Below are positions 9,450 to 32,305 of a stretch of 64,000 nt of DNA, one piece after another. Made by a program: the position numbers and the translations under genes. This stretch comes from an uncultured Candidatus Saccharibacteria bacterium. GTDB taxonomy: Bacteria; Patescibacteriota; Doudnabacteria; UBA920. Location: NCBI GenBank assembly GCA_964650255.1, contig CAZYQT010000004.1, positions 6,501 to 70,500 on the forward strand, given 5' to 3'. The stretch's first letter is position 1; every line of letters begins with the position of its first letter. Under the pieces are notes generated by a model. It was not told the origin of the DNA, searched no databases, and saw only the letters and a program-made list of their open reading frames with translations.

Positions 9450-10073
9450 CTAACTTTGTCTGGACAAATATTCATCAATGGCTTTTTGAATACGCTTGCG
9501 CACTTCTGTGCGCGTACCTAAACCATCAATATATTTAAAATCGTATTTTGATTTAAAAAACTCAACCACTTCAGCGATATTTTTTCGGTAATACTTTGCC
9601 CGATTGCGAAGTGCTGTAATGCTATCATCAGCGCGTCTATTGAATTTAGTGTTGTAATAGCCTTTGCGCGCTTGAATTCTTTTGATAACTTCAGCCGCTG
9701 GAATTCGCAAATATATTACTAACGGATCTTTGCGTTGGGTTTGTTTTAAATACTTAGCTACAAGTTTTGCTTCGCCAACCATTTTTGGGTGGCCATCAAA
9801 TAAAATTGATTTCGATTGTGGCAACCCCAGCACTACATCACGATTTATTTTTCGAACAATGTTAGTAGGAGTTAATTTCCCTTGGTCATTATTCTTTTCC
9901 ATGACTAACTCAGCAGCTCGATCCTTTTCACGCAGCAAAGTTAGTGCTCGCCCCATGTCGTGATCATACATTTTATACTTCTTGGCAAAATAAGCTCCTT
10001 GAGTGGCCTTTCCCGCACCAGGATCTCCCAAAAGAATCATATTCAGATGCAATTTTTTGCCAGTATTTTTCAT
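9450..10073 (-). CDS. adenylate-kinase-family paralog (divergent NMP kinase)
   Basis: P-loop GDPGAGKATQG resembles the Adk motif GxPGxGKGTQ. DGHPK and RADDS resemble the Adk DGFPRT and RxDD motifs. Divergent compared with the upstream canonical adk. Confidence 0.55.
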   Translation of the reverse strand: MKNTGKKLHLNMILLGDPGAGKATQGAYFAKKYKMYDHDMGRALTLLREKDRAAELVMEKNNDQGKLTPTNIVRKINRDVVLGLPQSKSILFDGHPKMVGEAKLVAKYLKQTQRKDPLVIYLRIPAAEVIKRIQARKGYYNTKFNRRADDSITALRNRAKYYRKNIAEVVEFFKSKYDFKYIDGLGTRTEVRKRIQKAIDEYLSRQS

Positions 10074-10075
10074 GA

Positions 10076-10663
10076 TTAGACGTCCAGCGCCGCATTTATG
10101 CGATCAGTAATTTCTTGAATTGTGCCAACGCCATCTATAGTATGTAGATCACCAATACCTTCTAAGAACTTTAGCACTGGCTTTGTTTCTTTATCATAAG
10201 TATCCAGCCGAAAGTTGATTTTTTCTGGAGTGTCATCTGTTCGGAACTCATGATGAGCGCGCTCAAGCAAACGCTTCACCGATTCCTCGCGAGGAACATC
10301 AATGTGAATAGCAGCAAACTGTTTGTAACCATTCTGGCCCAGATAATTGATTAAATGCAGGCCCTGCGGCACAGTGCGCGGCACACCATCAAACAACAAC
10401 CGTTTGTGCTTAATTACTTCAGGAAGTTCGGTATTTAAAACGCGGAATAGTTCTTCATCTTCAAGTAGTTTGCCATTATCAATTAAATCTTTAACTTTAC
10501 GGCCAAATGGTGTGCCTTTCTTGGCTTCCTCGCGCAAGATAGCACCCATTTCCCAATAAAAATAGCCCAGACGCTCAGCCAGAACTTTTCCTTGAGTTCC
10601 TTTTCCTGAACCTTGCGGCCCGATCATGAATATAGCGTCGTATTTTGGTATGTCCATTGCCAT
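10076..10663 (-). CDS. adk: adenylate kinase
   Basis: GPQGSGKGTQ P-loop, FDGVPRT and RTDDTPEKI lid motifs. Start is probably the internal MAMDIP rather than the ORF-track start at 10693. Confidence 0.85.
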   Translation of the reverse strand: MAMDIPKYDAIFMIGPQGSGKGTQGKVLAERLGYFYWEMGAILREEAKKGTPFGRKVKDLIDNGKLLEDEELFRVLNTELPEVIKHKRLLFDGVPRTVPQGLHLINYLGQNGYKQFAAIHIDVPREESVKRLLERAHHEFRTDDTPEKINFRLDTYDKETKPVLKFLEGIGDLHTIDGVGTIQEITDRINAALDV

Positions 10664-10768
10664 AATTATAAAGTTTTTACAGCCTTTCTGCAAATTAAGT
10701 GAAACAGTGCGCTGAGTAACTAATTATGGTATAATATAAAAAATTTCTAACGAAACTAAAACAAAAAC

Positions 10769-13881: not shown

Positions 13882-13885
13882 AAAA

Positions 13886-13910
13886 ATAAAGGTCCGAAGG
13901 GGCCTTTATT
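13886..13910. terminator. hairpin terminator after cysS (aaaggtccgaaggggccttt)
   Basis: Stem-loop with flanking A and T runs. Confidence 0.5.
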
Positions 13911-13930
13911 CATAAGTGATCTTGTCATGT

Positions 13931-14302
13931 TCATTGCGGCTCAAGGCAGGAGACATTGCGGGCAATGTTTCTTACTTCGGAATTCGCAAGAGTATTTTGG
14001 TCGTACTCAATTCGGCAAATCTTGCCTACTATGCTTTTTCCGAGAGCACTTTGATTTTCAAAACGGATGCTCCCCTGTCCCTCAAAAGTCACTACTGAAG
14101 TAACGTGAAGTGGTTTATAATCTGTTTTGTTGACCATCCTTAGGATCAAACCAGAGATTACTTTCTTCTGTGTGGTTACGTTCGGTGATTCCATCGGAGC
14201 AACAGTGCTATTTTGTGGTAGCTCCACCCGATTCGATTGCTTGCTTAAGCAGCAACTCGAAAATAAAACAACTAAAATTACAAAAGCTAAAGCAATTCGC
14301 AT
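13931..14302 (-). CDS. small secreted/lipoprotein, hypothetical
   Basis: N-terminal signal peptide with Cys cluster (VVLFSSCC). 123 aa. Confidence 0.4.
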   Translation of the reverse strand: MRIALAFVILVVLFSSCCLSKQSNRVELPQNSTVAPMESPNVTTQKKVISGLILRMVNKTDYKPLHVTSVVTFEGQGSIRFENQSALGKSIVGKICRIEYDQNTLANSEVRNIARNVSCLEPQ

Positions 14303-14408
14303 AACTGTTCATCATCCCCTTTTAAATTGTTGTGAAGTTTTTGCAATTATATGACATTTTATGCCTTCCGTCAAGGACGAAATAATTCAATATTTATAAG
14401 CGCTTAAA

Positions 14409-14442
14409 TAAAAAACTGAGGCAACTGTTTAAGTCGCCTCAA
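14409..14442 (-). terminator. rho-independent terminator for the 14464-15621 gene
   Basis: tgaggc...gcctca hairpin. On the minus strand it is followed by a T-run (A6 on the plus strand). Confidence 0.5.
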
Positions 14443-14463
14443 GTTTAATAAAACAAAGGTTGT

Positions 14464-15621
14464 CTAACGATTATGCTCGACTCTCAATTCGAGACCGTAC
14501 TCACTCAAGTACTGAACCACCTCTTGAAGGCAAACCCGACCAAAGTTCTTCGTGCCCATAAGGTCACGGGGTGTCCGCCTAACCAGATCAGCACCAGTGC
14601 GAATATCAGCATTAAGTAGACAGTTCGTTGTCCGTTGGGAGAAATCAAGATGCCTGGTCTCGGTGTCCAAAAATTGCTCAGTCGTAAGTTTGGCAAATTT
14701 TATTACCTTTTCCACGACCTTTTCTGACTCCGCGTCAGCCACACTTCCAAGCTCAAGATAACGATCGGCCAAAGAACTCCTGCTCGCTTTCAAAATCAAA
14801 GCGCGCTTATTGCCACGCTTTAATGAATCAAGAGCATGCCACTCGGCCGACCTAATCATACTCGCACTTACCTTGTAAATCCGGCTAAGTTCAGCGTAAG
14901 TTTTAGGGTTGCACCCAAAACCAAACCTGTGAACCAACAAACTTTTACGTTTAGGTTCAAGCATGTTCAATGCCGCATCTATCAATCTGTGGTCGACCGG
15001 ATTTTGGATTGTTGACCAACGACCGTTAATCATTTGTTCAACCACCCGAGCAAACATATCCTTAGATTGTTCAGAGATTTTTTCTCGAGCCAGAATCATG
15101 GAATCGAGCTGTTCTCTTACTGCGGTACTCAGCTTTGGAGTTTCCGATGGAAACAAAGCTTCCGCAAGATTAACATACGGGTCACTTGATGCTACCCGCT
15201 TCGGCATCGCCTGCACGATCTGGCGCCAAGCTGGTGCAAAATCATCACCAGGTCGTTCGAATTGCCAATAGTCAAAATAGAGCTTTTCGAACAACTCAGT
15301 TGCCAAATCGGCGTTGATCTTACCTTTCACCCTAATATAGGGCACTAAGTTTGATGGAGCCTGCAAGACATTGGCATAGGCCCGCAGTGTGTTAATAAAA
15401 GTGAGCGGGTATGGGATGGATGGCAGATTTAATATTCTGCGCAATTGAGCCCACCTTCTGCGCACCTCATCGCGGTTGAACTTGCCATATAGAACGATTA
15501 GGTTCATAGGCACCCCCAGGGTTATAAAACAAGATAACGAATCTCTTAATGAATCTTCCTTAGACATAATTTCCTCCGTGTAGTTTGAATTTTGTACGAT
15601 TAGTACTTTTGATTTTACCAA
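14464..15621 (-). CDS. putative transcription factor: unknown N-terminal domain plus sigma-70 region-4-like HTH plus RNAP alpha-subunit C-terminal-domain-like HhH
   Basis: The segment KRKSLLVHRFGFGCNPKTYAELSRIYKVSASMIRSAEWHALDSLKR fits the sigma-70 region 4 pattern. The segment LDFSQRTTNCLLNADIRTGADLVRRTPRDLMGTKNFGRVCLQEVVQYLSEYGLEL closely fits the alpha-CTD consensus (LSVRSYNCLKRAGI..GDL....EDLLKIRNFGRKSLEEI...L...GL.L). Confidence 0.5.
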   Translation of the reverse strand: MVKSKVLIVQNSNYTEEIMSKEDSLRDSLSCFITLGVPMNLIVLYGKFNRDEVRRRWAQLRRILNLPSIPYPLTFINTLRAYANVLQAPSNLVPYIRVKGKINADLATELFEKLYFDYWQFERPGDDFAPAWRQIVQAMPKRVASSDPYVNLAEALFPSETPKLSTAVREQLDSMILAREKISEQSKDMFARVVEQMINGRWSTIQNPVDHRLIDAALNMLEPKRKSLLVHRFGFGCNPKTYAELSRIYKVSASMIRSAEWHALDSLKRGNKRALILKASRSSLADRYLELGSVADAESEKVVEKVIKFAKLTTEQFLDTETRHLDFSQRTTNCLLNADIRTGADLVRRTPRDLMGTKNFGRVCLQEVVQYLSEYGLELRVEHNR

Positions 15622-15690
15622 CTATACCACAAGAGTATGCGATAGTCAACTCTACCACGCTACCCAAAAATCCGCTACAATGAATAAACT

Positions 15691-25297: not shown

Positions 25298-25372
25298 GGC
25301 GCCATCGTCTAGTGGTTAGGACACATGGTTCTCATCCATGTAACCGGAGTTCGATTCTCCGTGGCGCTACCA
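25298..25372 (+). tRNA. tRNA-Glu (anticodon CUC), CCA encoded
   Basis: Cloverleaf built by hand: acceptor GGCGCCA/TGGCGCT (G1-U72), D-arm GTCT/GGAC, anticodon stem CATGG/CCATG with loop TTCTCAT, T-arm CGGAG-TTCGATT-CTCCG, discriminator A, CCA. Extended -10 (tgGTAGAAT) at 25265-25272. Confidence 0.85.
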
Positions 25373-25377
25373 AAAGA

Positions 25378-25397
25378 AAACCCCAGCTGGGGTTTTC
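25378..25397. terminator. bidirectional terminator shared by tRNA-Glu and the convergent mod-res-kinase operon
   Basis: aaaacccc-agct-ggggtttt hairpin with A/T runs on both sides. Confidence 0.6.
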
Positions 25398-25416
25398 TTT
25401 GATTGCTGTAAATGGA

Positions 25417-25608
25417 TTAGTTGGCTATCTGAATTTGACGAGCCTTTTCAATTATCTTTCTTTGATCTTTATTGGATTTCTTAATTACAACCTCAATAAT
25501 TCGCTTCTTTTTCGTTGAAGATAAGTCATGAGAAAAGACCGAGAACTTACTTTGCTTCAGTTCCTTTTTGGGTTTGATATCAAAAATGTAGCGAATTATT
25601 CTATTCAT
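25417..25608 (-). CDS. small highly basic protein (63 aa), translationally coupled (TAATG) to the upstream zeta-like kinase
   Basis: MNRIIRYIFDIKPKKELKQSKFSVFSHDLSSTKKKRIIEVVIKKSNKDQRKIIEKARQ. Its start codon overlaps the kinase stop. Ends at the shared terminator. Partly overlaps the tRNA 3' region on the opposite strand, so could be spurious. Confidence 0.35.
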   Translation of the reverse strand: MNRIIRYIFDIKPKKELKQSKFSVFSHDLSSTKKKRIIEVVIKKSNKDQRKIIEKARQIQIAN

Positions 25609-26324
25609 TACTTTAGAAGTTCATTTAAATCATCTTCATTATACTGTTCTCGGATGTGGTTGTCAATTTCATCAATATTTAGCTCGGTTTTGCCTATGTC
25701 TCCATTAGCATCTTTGATCACTAAGTTAAGGGTGATTTGCTCTCTAAATTCTTCCTTAATAGCAGAAACGGTTTGCTTAGAAGCAAAATAGGCAGAAATA
25801 AATACAGGTTTAGTAATATTCCTTCCTTCAACTAACTCACGAGCTTTGGTAAACTCCCATGACACACGTGGATCTTGATAAATAAAATAGATTTCAGCAA
25901 TACCTCTTGCCTCTATCACTTTCTTAATATTCTTTCTAGATATACCTTGATTGGCCATGGTTCCATCAAGTACAAAATTCTGTTGATTTTTTAATACCGC
26001 ATGGAAAATTTCATCAACTGCAATACTTACTGCATTTTGAAATAGCCACGCATTTTTACCCTCATAAAATGAAATTTCTTTTCTAATCTCATCTGCGTCA
26101 ATTCTAATAATCCTGCCATTAAACTCTTCAATCAAATTAATAGAAAATTCGGTCTTTCCCGCTCCAGGAGAACCGGCCATAAAAACCGAGGCTGGTTTTA
26201 AGTCAGCCGGGAAATCCTTGGAATCAGCATATTTAGCAATAAGATAATTCTTTTTTGCTCTGATTTCCTTGCTGGCAGCGGAGCTAATTTCTTCATCTGT
26301 CATTTGAGTTTTCTTAATTAGCAA
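25608..26324 (-). CDS. zeta-toxin-family P-loop kinase-like protein
   Basis: Walker A GSPGAGKT around residue 50. IIRIDADEIRKE resembles the zeta IIIDGDSFR catalytic Asp region. VLDGTMAN resembles the zeta LIIEGTLR. Third gene of the mod-res operon. Confidence 0.55.
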   Translation of the reverse strand: MLIKKTQMTDEEISSAASKEIRAKKNYLIAKYADSKDFPADLKPASVFMAGSPGAGKTEFSINLIEEFNGRIIRIDADEIRKEISFYEGKNAWLFQNAVSIAVDEIFHAVLKNQQNFVLDGTMANQGISRKNIKKVIEARGIAEIYFIYQDPRVSWEFTKARELVEGRNITKPVFISAYFASKQTVSAIKEEFREQITLNLVIKDANGDIGKTELNIDEIDNHIREQYNEDDLNELLK

Positions 26325-26395
26325 GATTCAATAATTACACTTTATGACAAATTATGCAAGTGCCTCATTCCAAAACAATAGTTAAATATATAGAA

Positions 26396-29080
26396 TTAGC
26401 GAAGAATTTTTTCATTAAAGGTTGATTCAAAATCATCCCGCAATTCCATATTCCCTTCATTGTAGAAGGGTAAACCAATCAAGCGAAAATCTTCATTTTC
26501 AATTTTTATATCTACACTATATCGGTTTTCTATTTCTAGAAGAAATTTTTCTTTCCAACCTTCCTTGGAATTATTAAACGTATCTTCAGAGTCTAAAAAC
26601 TGGTCTCCTTTGGGTTCAATAAAAATTTGATAAAAATTTTCTTTTTGCGATTTTATCTCTCTTAAAAAGAGAACGAAGTCTGGCGAGAAAGCCTGTCCAT
26701 CAGAAAAATTATAAATCTTAAAAAATTTTTCATTTCGAAATAGGATTATATCTTTAAACTTATTTTTTAACAAACTTATAGAGCTTTCAATAAAACGCAA
26801 TAGAGATTCCTCTTCACTAGTTCCCCAGATTTCATTTTGAGCAAACCAATCATGGGAAGAAAAGTCAAAATCTCGCATTTCTAAAGCTCTTGCACTTTCA
26901 CCGTCCAGGTTTAAGACTTTGTCATTTTCAAATACCTCTCGGATTAAATGTGCCTTAAATTCAGATGTCCCCGAGTATTCTTTTTTCTCCTTGCTTGCGT
27001 TTTCTAAGACCTTTCCAATAACAAACCCTGCAATGCTTAGCTTTTCGCTTTGTGATAACTGGTCCAGCTGTTCAGGGATGCCTTTTACCTTTACCTTGAC
27101 CCCTCCGAGATACTGCTCGTTCAATATAAAATCCTTGACTGATTCTAAATTCCCAAAGATTTTCTTTAGTTCATCAAATCTACCGGTAGTGATTTTTGCC
27201 AAAGCTGTTCGTAAAATATGGGCCTCAAAATCAGTAATTTTAAATTCTCTTATCTCAGTTTTGACTTTAATCCCTTTTCCCTCACCAGTCACAAATAGAT
27301 CCTTTTCTATTGCTTCTCTGGTTGGTAATTGAAAAATGTTCATTTCAGAATGATGGTCGTATCCTGCGTTAGCATCGGCAAGTGTGAAGACGTCGTCTCC
27401 TAGATTTTCTTTTCTAGAATTCAAAAAAATGTAGCCATTCTTCCACAACTCTGTTTCCTTAATCTCGCTTTTAACTTTAATTTCCTTCTCCACGGTTCGG
27501 GAAGATATGATTCCTTCCTTAATTAGTACACTTTCCAATTCTTGTATATAACGCGGATTAGTTACGCTATGATAGTAAAGCTGTTCCAAAATACGTAATT
27601 CATTCTGCGCGTCAGTATCAAACTTTCTTGTATAGGGATCAGTAAATTCGCCAACCGTGAATGGGTAATAGCGCGCACCACGGCCAATCAGCTGAGCCTC
27701 CTGTACTGTAGTTTTACCCGGTTTATTATTGGCAGCATCCCGACTATTATAAAGCCTTACAATATCAAAAAGATTTAAAACGTCCCAGCCTTCATTTAAT
27801 TTTTCAGTCGCAAAAATAGCACGAACTTCATTACTGGATTCTTCTAAGGAGTTAAGTAATATCTGCTTTTGCTCTAAGTCTTTATCATCATCCACCGTTA
27901 AACAGTGTTCAGGTGCAAAGTCATGTTTAATTTCTTCCACTAAATCCTTTAGTGTTATTTTATGCTGATCGAAAAATAGAAAGGCTTTTTGCAAAGTTTC
28001 ATCTTGTATATTTGATTGTTGCTCTAATAATTTTTTATTTAACCCTTCAATGAAGGAATGGAATACTGTTTTGAACTCGCTCGAAACAACTATCTGAGGA
28101 TTGTCATTTGTTCGTTCATCTCTCTGTTTTGGCGAAGTTACTCTATTCGCTTTAAACATAATGACCGGCTTAAGCGCAATCTTATACTTCTCAGCTATTT
28201 TCCGACGATATTGAGAAATAATAACAGCTGAAAGCACGCGTTCCATCATTGGAGCATTAATTTGCAAGGTTCGTACATCTTTTGAAAATCCATCTAAACG
28301 GTACTCTTTAAGATCATAACGATAGATAGCTTTATCCTGGTATTTCTCTAAAATTTCTGGGTATTCTTGCTCTAGCCTAGCGGTTGCTGTGAATTCTAAA
28401 AGTACATTTTCATTTGCACTATTAGCATTCAAAATGCGCATAACCGTATTTTCCCAGTTACTTCGATCTTCTTCTTCAGTTTTGCTTAGTCGGCTATTAG
28501 TCTCAGCTGACAAATTATGCGCTTCATCTGCCATTAAAACAATTTTCTTGTCAGCAAAATCTTCATACGTCAGTACATTTTCGCGTGCTAAAGTAAATCG
28601 AGAATGCAGAAGCGCGGTGGTTGAAAAAATAATATTAATGTCATCATCATTCACCGCTTCGAAGTTTTCTACTTCTTTTATCTTTATTTCCTTAGTCCCT
28701 AAAATAATTTTATCGGCAAATAAATACTTTTGAGAATTAGAATCGGTGAAATTAGTCTTGGTTTTTTGGATGATATTTCCAAGTCTAGTAAAAAAAATAA
28801 AATTACGGAACCCTTGTTCATATAAATACAAAATATTAGCGGCCATTATTAATGTTTTACCTGAACCAGTAGCCATATTAAACATCAAATGAATAGGTTT
28901 TTGTTTTTGATGATAATCCTCGTAATAATAATAGAACCTACCCAATGCTTCTTTTTGATATTCACGCAATGAAAATGCTGGATTAAGATTGTTCAAAATA
29001 TCAATCCTTTCCATTGTCTTGTCCTTAAAAACATCCGCTCCCGCAAAATCTTTGAGAACGTTAAACTTTTCGTACAGCAT
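26396..29080 (-). CDS. res: type III restriction endonuclease Res subunit (SF2 helicase, DEAH)
   Basis: 894 aa. Motif I GSGKT, motif II MADEAH, helicase C-terminal motifs. Immediately downstream of mod. Confidence 0.85.
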   Translation of the reverse strand: MLYEKFNVLKDFAGADVFKDKTMERIDILNNLNPAFSLREYQKEALGRFYYYYEDYHQKQKPIHLMFNMATGSGKTLIMAANILYLYEQGFRNFIFFTRLGNIIQKTKTNFTDSNSQKYLFADKIILGTKEIKIKEVENFEAVNDDDINIIFSTTALLHSRFTLARENVLTYEDFADKKIVLMADEAHNLSAETNSRLSKTEEEDRSNWENTVMRILNANSANENVLLEFTATARLEQEYPEILEKYQDKAIYRYDLKEYRLDGFSKDVRTLQINAPMMERVLSAVIISQYRRKIAEKYKIALKPVIMFKANRVTSPKQRDERTNDNPQIVVSSEFKTVFHSFIEGLNKKLLEQQSNIQDETLQKAFLFFDQHKITLKDLVEEIKHDFAPEHCLTVDDDKDLEQKQILLNSLEESSNEVRAIFATEKLNEGWDVLNLFDIVRLYNSRDAANNKPGKTTVQEAQLIGRGARYYPFTVGEFTDPYTRKFDTDAQNELRILEQLYYHSVTNPRYIQELESVLIKEGIISSRTVEKEIKVKSEIKETELWKNGYIFLNSRKENLGDDVFTLADANAGYDHHSEMNIFQLPTREAIEKDLFVTGEGKGIKVKTEIREFKITDFEAHILRTALAKITTGRFDELKKIFGNLESVKDFILNEQYLGGVKVKVKGIPEQLDQLSQSEKLSIAGFVIGKVLENASKEKKEYSGTSEFKAHLIREVFENDKVLNLDGESARALEMRDFDFSSHDWFAQNEIWGTSEEESLLRFIESSISLLKNKFKDIILFRNEKFFKIYNFSDGQAFSPDFVLFLREIKSQKENFYQIFIEPKGDQFLDSEDTFNNSKEGWKEKFLLEIENRYSVDIKIENEDFRLIGLPFYNEGNMELRDDFESTFNEKILR

Positions 29081-29082
29081 AT

Positions 29083-30831
29083 TTATTTTCTACTATAAAA
29101 ATCCTGATTAAGCGCTTTATCATCTTTGCTTACTCTATATTCTTTATCATCAATTTCGCTTAGATTGACGTAAAGCTGGTTTTTATCCAAACACTCCATC
29201 AGAAACTTCTTTTTATTTTCCAAACTAAGTTGGATAAAATCCTTAATATTCGCATCAATTGTTTTTGGTTTTATTTTAAAACTTAAAAAGGCACTTTCTT
29301 TCATTGAATGCCAAAATTCTAAAAGTTCTTTATCATTTTTAGCTTTCTGTATTTTTTCTACCCACTCATCATTCCATTTTGCAAGTTCCATATAGATAAA
29401 ATCACCGCCACCATTCCATTGAACTAAGCTAGAAATTCCTTCTTGCTCTCCTTGAACCACAGAGTTCAGTCTATTTTTTAAAATTTCTATTTGCTCATCA
29501 ATTTGTTCGAGTGTTATATATTGCCTGCCCATTTTGTGCGACACTGCTGCAGTCGTACCGCTGCCAGAAAAAAAATCTAGCACAATATCACCCTCATCAG
29601 TCGCAGAATTAATAATTCTTCTTAGTAAACCCTCGGGTTTCTGTGTCCTGAAATCCAAAAACTCATTGGAACCACTAATCAGTGGTTTTGTTATGTCATG
29701 GTCCCAGACATCTCTAACATAAACTTCTGAAAAATATCTATTAAATAGCTTATCCTTGTACCTATCAGGGACTGCTTGGTTATTTTTTATACTATCTGAA
29801 ATTACTTTACGGTCTTTTTCAGAAAGTTGAGATAGATCTGGAGCGGTAACCTGAGTGTCTATAAAGGGTTTTTCATACTTTACTACTTCTTTTTCTGGAT
29901 TAAATTTATAATTTTCAGTTTTACTATAAATAAAAATATTGTCATGCTTCTTAGGCCACGCCCCTTTACCCACACCTTGAATACGGTATCCCCAAATAAC
30001 TTCATTAACAAAATTGTCTCTACCTAATACTTCATCACATAACACTTTAAAATAATGTGCCTCGTTGTAATCTAAATGAATATAGATAAGTCCTGTTGAA
30101 GACAACAACTCTCTAGCAATTTTTAAACGATCTTTTATAAATGTAAGCCAAGAAGAATGGTTAAATCTATCATTATATTTAAAGGAATCCTTTTCCGTAT
30201 TAAATGGTGGATCAATGTATATTAATTGAATTTTCCCACCGAATTCTTTTTTAAGCGAAGCAAGTGCGAGAAGATTATTACCTTTAATAATTAAATTGTC
30301 AGTGATTATACCTTTTTCATTGCGGTTAAAGCCAACTAATTTATTCTCCCCGTTTTTATCTATGCGTTTGAAATTAGTAAAGACCTTTGGATCAAACAAA
30401 CTATTAATATCATCAGAAGCTAATGTTTCATTATAAAAAATTTCATCGCGTTTTTGGTCTTCCTTAGTCATTCCGCCTTCTAGAACACAATCCTTGTATG
30501 GCCAAGCTAAAACTACTTCATTATTTTCGCTTAAATAATTGTTACCGCTAATAAGGCCGATTTTATTTTTAAAAGCAGTATAGGAATCTGGTAAAAATTG
30601 CTTATTCGACACAAAGCTAATAAACTTCTCTTTATCAAAAATTAGTGTTTTTTCTACTTCAAAAAAGAAATTCTGCTTTATGGCTTTATCGGAAAGTAAA
30701 AGTTTAATCAGGTCTGCATCGTTCTTGCGTGCCAATTCTTGTATTTGGTTTTTCAATAACACTCCGTCCTGAGAAACAAGACGCTCATCGCTTTTCAGTA
30801 AACCTGTAACTTGCTCAAAAATATTATTCAT
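29083..30831 (-). CDS. mod: type III R-M Mod subunit, N6-adenine/N4-cytosine DNA methyltransferase
   Basis: 582 aa. Catalytic IYIDPPFNT (DPPF/Y) motif and AdoMet motif FFSGSGTTAAV. 2-nt gap to res. Confidence 0.85.
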   Translation of the reverse strand: MNNIFEQVTGLLKSDERLVSQDGVLLKNQIQELARKNDADLIKLLLSDKAIKQNFFFEVEKTLIFDKEKFISFVSNKQFLPDSYTAFKNKIGLISGNNYLSENNEVVLAWPYKDCVLEGGMTKEDQKRDEIFYNETLASDDINSLFDPKVFTNFKRIDKNGENKLVGFNRNEKGIITDNLIIKGNNLLALASLKKEFGGKIQLIYIDPPFNTEKDSFKYNDRFNHSSWLTFIKDRLKIARELLSSTGLIYIHLDYNEAHYFKVLCDEVLGRDNFVNEVIWGYRIQGVGKGAWPKKHDNIFIYSKTENYKFNPEKEVVKYEKPFIDTQVTAPDLSQLSEKDRKVISDSIKNNQAVPDRYKDKLFNRYFSEVYVRDVWDHDITKPLISGSNEFLDFRTQKPEGLLRRIINSATDEGDIVLDFFSGSGTTAAVSHKMGRQYITLEQIDEQIEILKNRLNSVVQGEQEGISSLVQWNGGGDFIYMELAKWNDEWVEKIQKAKNDKELLEFWHSMKESAFLSFKIKPKTIDANIKDFIQLSLENKKKFLMECLDKNQLYVNLSEIDDKEYRVSKDDKALNQDFYSRK

Positions 30832-30936
30832 AATTTTACTCTAAATATACTTAATAATAACATTTCTTCATGTGTTGGTAAATCCTTCATAAACAAGCAA
30901 AAGCACCTATCCTATCAGTGATGCTATAATCAACCT

Positions 30937-31356
30937 ATGAACATCTACCTCGACATCGATGGAGTGCTCCTGACAGATTCCCTATCTGACCGTGGCAATC
31001 CTACCCCGCACTCCCTGGAGCTCCTCAATACGATTACTGACCACCACACAGTCTATTGGCTCACTACCCACTGCCATGGCGGGGAAAATCGCGCTCCCGA
31101 ACTTCTCTACCCAAAATTCCCTCCTGAAGCCAAAGCTTACATAGACAAAATCTTGCCTACAGATTGGGGTACTTGGAAAACTGATGCCATCGATTTTTCC
31201 GAAGACTTCCTCTGGCTCGACGATGACGTCTACGGAACAGAATACACAGCCCTAGCCAAACACAACTGTTCAGAAAAACTCATAAAAATTAATCTACAAG
31301 AGAATCCGGAGCAGTTGAAAGATATTATTCAAAAATTAACAGATAAAAATATATGA
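30937..31356 (+). CDS. HAD-superfamily phosphatase-like protein, compositionally atypical (GC-rich, C-ending codons)
   Basis: Motif I LDIDGVLL, motif II WLTT, motif IV LWLDDD. The first roughly 300 nt are visibly richer in G+C than the flanking genes. Confidence 0.45.
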   Translation: MNIYLDIDGVLLTDSLSDRGNPTPHSLELLNTITDHHTVYWLTTHCHGGENRAPELLYPKFPPEAKAYIDKILPTDWGTWKTDAIDFSEDFLWLDDDVYGTEYTALAKHNCSEKLIKINLQENPEQLKDIIQKLTDKNI

Positions 31357-31544
31357 AATGGTTAAAAGAGAATTGGTTTAAAATAGCTATTTTGCTCTCA
31401 GTGCTACTTATATTCTTTAGTTGGTTATATGTGGCAAAAATAAAACCATCGAATATTCGTAAATTTTGTTTTAATATAGCTAAGGAAAATCCCTACGGTT
31501 ACAACTATAAAGAATGTATTATTAGTTACGGGTTAACCCAATAA
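31353..31544 (+). CDS. small membrane protein (1 TM), hypothetical
   Basis: 63 aa. ATGA overlap with the HAD-like gene. Hydrophobic segment IAILLSVLLIFFSWLYV. Confidence 0.3.
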   Translation: MKWLKENWFKIAILLSVLLIFFSWLYVAKIKPSNIRKFCFNIAKENPYGYNYKECIISYGLTQ

Positions 31545-31762
31545 TATCATGTCCAATAAATAGAACACCACCATAGGTTTGAGCCTTGGAATGATCCTGC
31601 TTGGATTGCTTATTGCTGCTATAGCTGTAATTGTAGCTGTGGCGATAAAAAGCTTCGTGAATGGTTTAAAAAACCATACTGTCTCGAAAAAAATATTAAT
31701 GAGAAAAGTGTTGCTCAAATAGTCAAAGATTATCTATTAACACAACAATCCTGGTTATAGCA

Positions 31763-32305
31763 TTATTTCTCAATACCCAGGGCTATGTATAAACTGGAAT
31801 ACACTAAGCCTTCATAGAATTGGCATGACATGTACTCTGGGTCTTCTTTAGTTGCTTTTTGATACCAATCCCACGATGCCATTGGATCGGAAACTATTGG
31901 CATCGTCGTAACTTTATAGCCAAGCTGAATAATTTTCTCAATGATTGGTTTTAAAAGGTTGAGATTATCTCCAATTATTTCAATTACTATATTCTTCTTA
32001 TCTGCGATTGCCGTGCTTACCACATACTCACCTGCAAAGGATAAATAGGCTGACATTTTTGGATCTTCAGCATCGAATAGCTTATTCATCTCGAGAACTA
32101 TATCGCCACCATCAAAATGTACGTAACCTGTCGGGAACTCTTGACGACGAGCAGTAGTTTTTCCAGCGGCTGGACCACCGGACACAATTACAAACTGCGG
32201 ATGGTCTTCGGTCCTACCCCGTTCACAAAACTGTTCTACTAGTTCAAGAATTTTCAGCGTAGCATCGGTCTCAAATTGTACTATTTTTGGCTGTGATTCT
32301 GACAT
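31763..32305 (-). CDS. second zeta-toxin-like P-loop kinase (short form)
   Basis: Walker A SGGPAAGKTT. VHFDGGDIVLE matches the Asp-containing catalytic segment. IEIIGDNL matches the zeta-like third motif. 180 aa. Confidence 0.45.
   Translation of the reverse strand: MSESQPKIVQFETDATLKILELVEQFCERGRTEDHPQFVIVSGGPAAGKTTARRQEFPTGYVHFDGGDIVLEMNKLFDAEDPKMSAYLSFAGEYVVSTAIADKKNIVIEIIGDNLNLLKPIIEKIIQLGYKVTTMPIVSDPMASWDWYQKATKEDPEYMSCQFYEGLVYSSLYIALGIEK

Follow-up and report, generated by a model that had tools for sequence, protein, structure and literature searches.

Sigma region 4 (sigma-4), the C-terminal domain of the alpha subunit (alpha-CTD) and the beta flap tip are parts of three RNA polymerase subunits, and the upstream edge of a promoter is the only place where they come together. 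A gene between cysS and dnaB on contig CAZYQT010000004.1 encodes the first two of these on a single chain, which raises the question of what such a protein does. The gene occupies positions 14464..15567, on the minus strand, of the 64,000-nucleotide stretch of DNA analysed here, which we refer to as the window. We read its product, with a probability of about one half, as a DNA-binding transcription regulator that acts independently of RNA polymerase, a function that we infer from sequence. This reading is favoured by the occurrence of a relative in an archaeal context, by the multiplication of alpha-CTDs and the helicase fusions seen among relatives, and by the conservation of DNA-contacting residues.

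Two polymerase domains on a stand-alone protein

The first-pass annotation of this DNA, made from its letters alone, had pointed to both domains, and the two peptide segments that it quoted are found verbatim in the translation. Its assignments held up in profile searches, with both domains scoring above their gathering cutoffs: Pfam RNA_pol_A_CTD (PF03118) matches amino acids (aa) 297 to 356 with 57 bits (E = 1.6e-15; cutoff, 23.8), and Sigma70_r4 (PF04545) matches aa 199 to 250 with 24.2 bits (E = 2.3e-5), barely over its cutoff of 24.1. NCBIfam RpoD_Cterm matches aa 145 to 256, the NCBIfam rpoA models match through their last ~80 positions only (34 to 54 bits against cutoffs of 228 to 523), and a PDB sequence search with the window protein returned alpha-CTDs down to an E value of 1.8e-9. 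These domain matches are far beyond chance. An AlphaFold2 model built on 16 sequences likewise contains both domains, each with a predicted local distance difference test score (pLDDT) above 90, and shows low confidence in most of aa 1 to 190.

The sigma-70 region 4 domain (regions 4.1 to 4.2 and the tail) spans aa 192 to 258 (14794..14994; minus strand, as are all features of the gene given below), and the alpha-CTD-like helix-hairpin-helix domain spans aa 297 to 362 (14482..14679). Between them lies a linker, aa 259 to 296 (14680..14793), modelled as helical at low confidence (pLDDT 44 to 59); in relatives the linker is one long helix, which in the family member P0092 is a single helix of 46 residues with pLDDT 83 to 96. 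About 190 aa precede sigma-4, and not the roughly 230 aa first estimated, because translation starts at the ATG at 15567. The window protein as a whole is all-helical and stand-alone.

The domains had been described as sitting on a non-polymerase polypeptide, and this is what we find. The protein gives no Pfam match to Sigma70_r2 (PF04542) or Sigma70_r3, even at E values up to 10, and no Pfam match to the N-terminal domain of the alpha subunit (alpha-NTD). When a 27-sequence family profile is compared with an RpoD profile by hhalign, only regions 4.1 to 4.2 and the tail align (probability 99.7%), and confidence upstream of region 4 is zero; on this result and the absent region 2 and 3 matches we reject a degenerate full sigma factor. 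A protein with no sigma-2, sigma-3 or alpha-NTD can act neither as a sigma factor nor as an alpha subunit: the lack of an alpha-NTD means no assembly into core enzyme, and the lack of sigma regions 1.1 to 3 means no recognition of the -10 element and no DNA melting. Genes of this kind should accordingly carry neither a sigma-factor nor an alpha-subunit label in annotation.

A recurrent family of sigma-4 and alpha-CTD proteins

A family member, as defined here, has sigma-4, then a helical linker and then one or more alpha-CTDs, and it has neither sigma-2 nor alpha-NTD. The window protein has this composition and gives an E value of 3e-88 against the family hidden Markov model (HMM), in which it is itself included; two proteins outside the HMM, encoded between cysS and dnaB in relatives L006 and L012, give about 1e-60. 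A word-indexed homologue search returned the window protein itself as the only match. An exhaustive search returned 2565 matches, mostly alpha-CTDs, with no homologue for the first ~115 aa, and a profile of the N-terminal regions recovered the L006 protein only.

The architecture had been called unusual, and the homologue survey shows that it is recurrent. All 10 of the distant matches scanned with Pfam have Sigma70_r4 and one or two RNA_pol_A_CTD domains, with nothing else from sigma, and HMMs of both domains show sigma-4 together with between one and six alpha-CTDs, whichever comes first, in 48 of the 150 best cluster representatives, one of the 48 being a fusion with an SNF2/ResIII helicase. 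Viral contigs were scanned as well and yielded ten phage proteins of 207 to 343 aa with the same layout of sigma-4, linker and alpha-CTD. The phage members have RecE-like, Sak4-like, helicase, replication-initiator, SSB and Dam genes as neighbours, that is, an early DNA-metabolism module. We also considered a split sigma factor, with a sigma-2-like partner gene beside the phage members, and rejected it, the neighbours being SSB, Dam, DUF6378, dGTP diphosphohydrolase and ThyX-like genes.

Outside phages, some members adjoin mreB and murA, one lies on a Firmicute contig with SpoIVA, and one (P0011) adjoins genes for type IV coupling proteins and for a protein with Sigma70_r4 and HARE-HTH. The latter protein, of 324 aa (L248, 1004-1978), is encoded next to two type IV secretion coupling-protein genes. 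The delta subunit of Gram-positive RNA polymerase has the HARE-HTH fold, and the 324-aa protein is thus another recombination of polymerase-derived modules. One family member with sigma-4 and two alpha-CTDs (P0024; L250, 5905-7260) was found on an archaeal contig in two independent assemblies, where its neighbours are UPF0147, prefoldin beta, Pcc1, L37ae and a thermosome gene; this neighbourhood implies that a module derived from bacterial polymerase was transferred into an archaeon. Across these sequences, the family is fast-evolving and accessory, and it spans Patescibacteria, Firmicutes, phages and one archaeon.

A metagenome scan recovered no family members, its matches being swamped by rpoA and rpoD, and one family profile search was swamped by RpoD matches. 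The window protein has no match to known anti-phage defence systems in PADLOC, a weak sigma-factor match alone in PHROGs (E = 0.0011), with no membership of a known phage family, and no significant match in a viral fold library (none at E ≤ 0.001). No further paralogue, rpoA or rpoD was found within the window. Both domains are known; literature searches for the sigma-4/alpha-CTD pair or for alpha-CTD-like fusions found no description, and the combination appears to be without one in the literature searched.

Alpha-CTDs recur in further proteins that are not RpoA. P0015 joins TPR repeats to two alpha-CTDs, and about 80 further representatives of ~435 to 460 aa, scanned for alpha-CTDs only, likewise have two. 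This large non-RpoA set (including P0002, P0076 and P0020) contains arrays of up to 10 to 11 repeats, as well as fusions of SNF2/ResIII helicases with three to five alpha-CTDs, some of which also have sigma-4.

Conservation of polymerase surfaces in relatives and divergence of the window copy

Residues were mapped against RpoD and RpoA of E. coli MG1655 and counted in 26 relatives. The relatives keep RpoD R586 (24), R588 (21), Q589 (20) and E585 (16), and also K593 (18), R596 (23), K597 (22), R599 (21), H600 (20) and R603 (20), as well as the hydrophobic L598 and L607. Region 4.2 of the relatives is thus almost the same as that of RpoD. In the alpha-CTD, 25 of the 26 relatives have R265, and as many have N268 and G296. 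E. coli alpha-CTD E261 contacts sigma R603, and both partners of this contact are conserved across the family. In the model of the canonical member P0092 (mean pLDDT, 92), sigma-4 superposes on SigA with 39 to 48% identity and a root mean square deviation of about 2 Å.

The window copy retains the structural core of sigma-4 (L551, R562, F563, G564, T572, E575, V582, I587, E591, A594, L595 and L598), and in its alpha-CTD it retains R265, N268, C269 and G296 as R312, N315, C316 and G343; K298, S299 and E261 are V345, C346 and D308. At RpoD positions 584, 585, 586, 588 and 589 it carries A235, S236, M237, R239 and S240, so that only R588 is retained, and at positions 593, 596, 597, 599, 600 and 603 it carries H244, D247, S248, K250, R251 and K254. 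Where relatives have an RpoD-type region 4.2 followed by an HPSRS tail, the window protein has SASMIRSAEWHALDSLKRGNKR, which is not of that type. On this comparison the window copy is a divergent member of its family. The description of its sigma-4 as the -35-contacting module therefore goes too far: the region 4 helix-turn-helix is there, and the -35-reading residues R584, E585, R586 and Q589 are replaced by A, S, M and S, which makes a consensus -35 element an unlikely target of this copy.

An upstream helix resembling the beta flap tip

The beta flap tip is the natural docking partner of sigma-4, and RpoB L901, L902, I905 and F906 form the patch that docks it. In MAFFT alignments that predate the hypothesis of a flap-tip likeness, the Patescibacteria-type members have one conserved feature N-terminal to sigma-4, GYxxLLxxIFG, which resembles the flap-tip helix EEKLLRAIFGE of E. 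coli RpoB (residues 898 to 908; sequence verified). The N-terminal part of the window protein, which had been called uncharacterised, is not featureless, as it probably carries a degenerate copy of this family helix. To our knowledge, a flap-like helix in such proteins is unreported.

A position-specific scoring matrix (PSSM) built from 12 MAFFT-aligned motif instances ranks residues 898 to 908 as the top window of E. coli RpoB, with 15.2 bits versus 4.3 for the runner-up. Only 6 of 1.08 million background windows reach 15.2 bits, namely three family members, two RpoB flap tips from other loci and one unrelated sequence. At a threshold of 10 bits, the motif lies 20 to 65 aa upstream of sigma-4 in 13 of the 22 sigma-4-first proteins, 10 of which had supplied PSSM instances, and in none of the alpha-CTD-first proteins.

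In the window protein the putative motif, DPYVNLAEALFPS, lies at aa 129 to 141 (15145..15183), as placed by the translation, the alignments, the PSSM and a helix in the AlphaFold2 model. The core of this instance, YVNLAEALFPS, stands at the aligned position and is a degenerate copy of YxxLLxxIFG; it scores 12.0 bits when left out of the matrix, a level attained by about 16 or more of the 1.08 million background windows, and the protein's own region 4.1 scores 12.9. The modelled helix covers residues 130 to 138, with a pLDDT of 86 for residues 131 to 140 versus 63 and 55 in the flanks, and the motif helix of P0092 has pLDDT 80 to 88. The phage members carry YPFNLaxxvMG, which matches the flap tip weakly (7.5 bits), this still being the top RpoB window. 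The phage and Patescibacteria motifs may be positionally equivalent: comparison at the motif level favours this, but MAFFT sets the phage helix opposite aa ~166 to 178 of the window protein.

A metagenomic protein of 959 aa (P0094) was also seen to combine two alpha-CTDs with fragments of RpoB domain 6 and RpoC N-terminal domain 1, the RpoB fragment having the flap-tip sequence EEKLLRAIFGE unchanged. Being another chimera of polymerase pieces, it could be a sigma-binding decoy.

Genomic slot and expression signals of the window gene

The DnaB encoded beside the gene is that of a member of the Patescibacteria (92% identical to an uncultured Candidatus Saccharibacteria metagenome-assembled genome [MAG] and 70 to 77% to Candidatus Doudnabacteria MAGs), and it belongs to a conserved gene order of Na/H exchanger, cysS, a slot, dnaB, recR and PDZ protease. 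The closest relatives (L004, L005, L008, L009, L014, L021 and L022) have nothing or almost nothing in the slot, and L006 and L012 have a family member of 330 to 333 aa there. These two slot proteins share 38% identity, and the window protein shares 24% with that of L006, over sigma-4 to alpha-CTD only, while the DnaB proteins flanking the slot are 84 to 92% identical. An empty or variable slot, together with low identity of the slot proteins and high identity of DnaB, indicates a gene that is accessory and either very fast evolving or repeatedly replaced. We conclude that the window gene is, as far as this comparison of loci goes, dispensable and placed in a hypervariable slot. The base composition of the gene is unremarkable, and no convincing flanking repeats or mobile-element signatures were found around the insert. 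Elsewhere, the slot (13882-15690 in the window; compared with L004 to L022 and L076) holds unrelated open reading frames (ORFs), including a lipoprotein-like, a membrane and a 360-aa ORF.

The minus-strand ORF 14464..15621 is present in the ORF list, and the coding sequence within it, 14464..15567, gives 367 aa plus a stop codon. The start had first been put at the TTG at 15621; the real one is the ATG at 15567, as in public gene calls, with a Shine-Dalgarno sequence GGAGGA (15572..15577) 4 nt upstream. The TTG falls within the -10 element of a promoter-like site at a suitable distance upstream of the ATG (15621..15649; TTGACT, 17 nt, TATAGT, with an upstream TG), which matches the consensus at 10 of 12 positions in a scan that found 3 promoter-like sites in the region versus 3.9 expected by chance. 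The -35 of this site (15649..15644, minus strand) stands back-to-back with a conserved dnaB -10 (gctacaat, also in L004 and L005), so that the two divergent promoters share about 30 bp (window 15621-15690). On the 3' side of the stop codon, the scan found an intrinsic-terminator-like hairpin at 14406..14442, with an 11-bp stem (14442..14416) and a 5-nt loop, followed by the T-run TTTTTTATTT. With its own promoter-like site and terminator, the gene is probably monocistronic. Three independent metagenome contigs have a gene call for exactly this 367-aa product, a fourth has a variant that differs in one residue, and two near-identical alleles differ by one nucleotide.

The gene had been said to sit alone between cysS and dnaB with its own terminator. 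The terminator is borne out by the stem and T-run, but the gene is not alone, as the space between it and cysS also contains an ORF of 123 aa (13931-14302, minus strand), whose product has a lipoprotein-like signal, MRIALAFVILVVLFSSCC. This ORF has a promoter-like site of its own (TTGACG, 17 nt, TATAAT, at 14374..14346), has no Pfam, PADLOC or significant PHROG match, and is co-inherited with the target gene in a near-identical strain (L246).

At the other end of the protein, aa 3 to 46 (15430..15561) form a three-helix segment, tentatively a helix-turn-helix, on the evidence of AlphaFold2 and of alignments. Helices are modelled at residues 3 to 16, 21 to 28 and 32 to 46 with pLDDT 64 to 81, and the segment aligns with the N termini of P0011 (Pfam HTH_11, 28.4 bits), P0050, P0114 and P0125. 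The segment has no Pfam match in the window protein itself. The N terminus may thus begin with a helix-turn-helix common to longer relatives.

Proposed mode of action and alternatives

In the reading that we prefer, the protein would work away from polymerase as a DNA-binding transcription regulator. Sigma-4 would read a site in the major groove, the tethered alpha-CTD would grip the adjacent minor groove, which is probably A/T-rich, and the short upstream helix (YxxLLxxIFG, presenting the hydrophobic face of the flap tip) would fold back into the flap-binding groove of sigma-4. We propose that sigma-4, with the helix folded into its groove, would therefore be stable and could bind DNA in the absence of core enzyme. 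Given the RpoD-type recognition helix of canonical relatives, their target should resemble a -35 element with an upstream A/T tract. The recognition residues of the window copy are changed and its site is probably a different one; this altered helix argues for new specificity or for weakened function. The multiplication and shuffling of alpha-CTDs and the helicase fusion suggest that the domains act as DNA-targeting modules, and for the motif-bearing member in an archaeal context no bacterial core enzyme is expected to be there to dock onto.

Several points weigh against this. The archaeal context is a single case, and the near-perfect retention of the RpoD surface in relatives would also fit a role on polymerase. 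The motif of the window copy is degenerate (LAEALFP) and its 12.0 bits lie slightly below the 12.9 of its region 4.1 segment, which shows that helices of the LLxxIFG type are not unique to the flap tip; the phage-type motif YPFNL..vMG matches the flap tip only weakly. The contact between the motif helix and sigma-4 is putative and drawn from pLDDT. Lastly, most of the -35-reading and activator-patch residues are lost in the window copy, and K298 and S299 are V and C, so that its DNA binding is less certain than that of its relatives.

A more specific version of the regulator reading can be put forward tentatively, as possible and somewhat doubtful. The family would be a single-chain replica of the upstream-promoter-recognition unit of the holoenzyme, in which a flap-tip mimic caps an RpoD-type sigma-4 bound to a -35-like site, the alpha-CTD reads an UP-like tract, and the two are joined by the E261/R603 contact. 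Freed from polymerase and spread horizontally to candidate-phyla bacteria, Firmicutes, phages and even archaea, such a unit might occupy or mark promoters, for instance in host shut-off or global repression, and the window gene would descend from it with an altered specificity.

Its main rival, which we consider unlikely, is that the protein docks on polymerase. Here sigma-4 would take the place of sigma-A region 4 on the beta flap, and/or the flap-like helix would capture sigma-A region 4 in trans, so that holoenzyme is re-targeted or inhibited, in the manner of phage sigma-appropriation or flap-binding factors, with the alpha-CTD adding an upstream DNA contact. The nearly intact RpoD surface of relatives (the K593/R596/K597/R599/H600 activator patch, R603 and L598/L607) is what one would expect of such a factor, the flap-tip resemblance could equally serve the binding of another sigma-4, and the phage members are placed in early modules for replication and recombination, which commonly contain regulators of host takeover; there are also known phage proteins directed at sigma-4 (G1 ORF67 and T4 AsiA/MotA). 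However, the genome context of one member is archaeal, the helicase fusions and the copies with up to six alpha-CTDs look like DNA-targeting modules, the window copy is without most of the conserved RpoD surface residues, and no sigma-2-like partner gene adjoins the phage members.

A general DNA-binding or nucleoid-associated protein of low specificity, in which helix-hairpin-helix and helix-turn-helix give avidity and there is no dedicated regulon, is improbable. It would account for the arrays of up to 10 to 11 alpha-CTD-like repeats in relatives and for a recognition helix without the specific RpoD contacts in the window copy, and it agrees with the background on UP elements, where the alpha-CTD reads minor-groove shape and not base sequence. 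The family nevertheless keeps a complete sequence-reading helix-turn-helix, and the gene is absent from its closest relatives, which would be unusual for a structural chromatin protein.

Very improbable is that the window gene is a decaying or neutral accessory copy, a divergent remnant drifting in a hypervariable slot. Such a remnant would suit a slot that is empty or filled with unrelated ORFs in most relatives, and a protein more divergent than any other member (24% identical to the slot protein of L006, in the C-terminal half only), with Sigma70_r4 barely at cutoff and key residues lost. It is hard to square with an intact frame of 367 codons with Shine-Dalgarno sequence, promoter-like site and terminator, with two domains modelled at pLDDT above 90, with the retained structural core and alpha-CTD R/N/C/G residues, and with the recurrence of the sequence, with a single substitution, in four assemblies. 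It is scarcely credible that the protein is a genuine alternative sigma factor, with an N-terminal half that is a sigma-2 diverged past recognition, as Sigma70_r2 and r3 give no match at E up to 10, the hhalign comparison has zero confidence upstream of region 4, the short members of 207 to 231 aa leave no room for a sigma-2, and the first 115 aa are without a detectable homologue.

Other features of the window

Elsewhere in the window, a low-GC island (0.335 to 0.35 versus about 0.42) at 25298-32305 adjoins a tRNA gene (25298-25369) and contains the paired Res (26396-29080) and Mod (29083-30831) genes of a type III restriction-modification system, as well as two genes resembling zeta toxins (25608-26324 and 31763-32305); it is probably an acquired defence island. 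Two tandem adenylate-kinase-family genes (Pfam ADK; 9450-10693, minus strand) lie upstream of map, an arrangement that is conserved in relatives.

Significance and comparison with known systems

If the regulator reading is correct, promoter-recognition modules are detachable and can be reused as a toolkit for transcription factors, and sigma-4 can be made independent of core enzyme. The novelty would be a transcription regulator built from polymerase modules, with the window gene as a divergent and dispensable member. The family offers a testable way into the question of how genome-reduced candidate-phyla bacteria and their phages control or hijack promoters, and a compact natural scaffold for the engineering of promoter-binding proteins.

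Compared with region 4 of RpoD/SigA (PF04545), the window protein is without regions 1.1 to 3 and has changed -35-reading residues; region 4 ends the protein in RpoD/SigA, whereas here the alpha-CTD comes after sigma-4. The match to the alpha-CTD of RNA polymerase (PF03118) is strong in sequence and fold, with the 265-determinant residues R265, N268, C269 and G296 kept, but there is no alpha-NTD, and K298 and S299 are V and C. WhiA and the LuxR/GerE regulators are non-sigma proteins with a sigma-4-like helix-turn-helix, and they have other partner domains, none of them an alpha-CTD; the window protein has no Pfam match to GerE at E up to 10, the resemblance being at fold level only. Stand-alone, alpha-CTD-containing phage proteins annotated as "RNA polymerase, alpha subunit, C-terminal" occur in a viral structure library, but they are of about 130 aa and mostly without sigma-4, and their matches are weak (none at E ≤ 0.001).

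T4 AsiA/MotA (sigma appropriation), T4 gp33 and phage G1 ORF67 are phage factors whose target is sigma region 4 or the beta flap. PDB entry 4g6d_A contains phage G1 ORF67, a sigma-4-targeting protein. These small accessory proteins at the sigma-4/flap interface, often phage-encoded, are a model for the docking alternative; they have no sequence or fold relationship to the window protein, which is a sigma-4 homologue and not a sigma-4 binder. Engineered chimeras of sigma-4 and flap tip, which serve in structure determination, exist as well (for example, PDB 6ono_B, an entry described as a fusion of rpoD with RNA polymerase subunit beta). In contrast to these, the flap-like helix of the family lies N-terminal to sigma-4 and resembles the flap tip by motif only, its contact with sigma-4 is putative, and an alpha-CTD is added; with these differences, the family is a possible natural counterpart of the engineered proteins.

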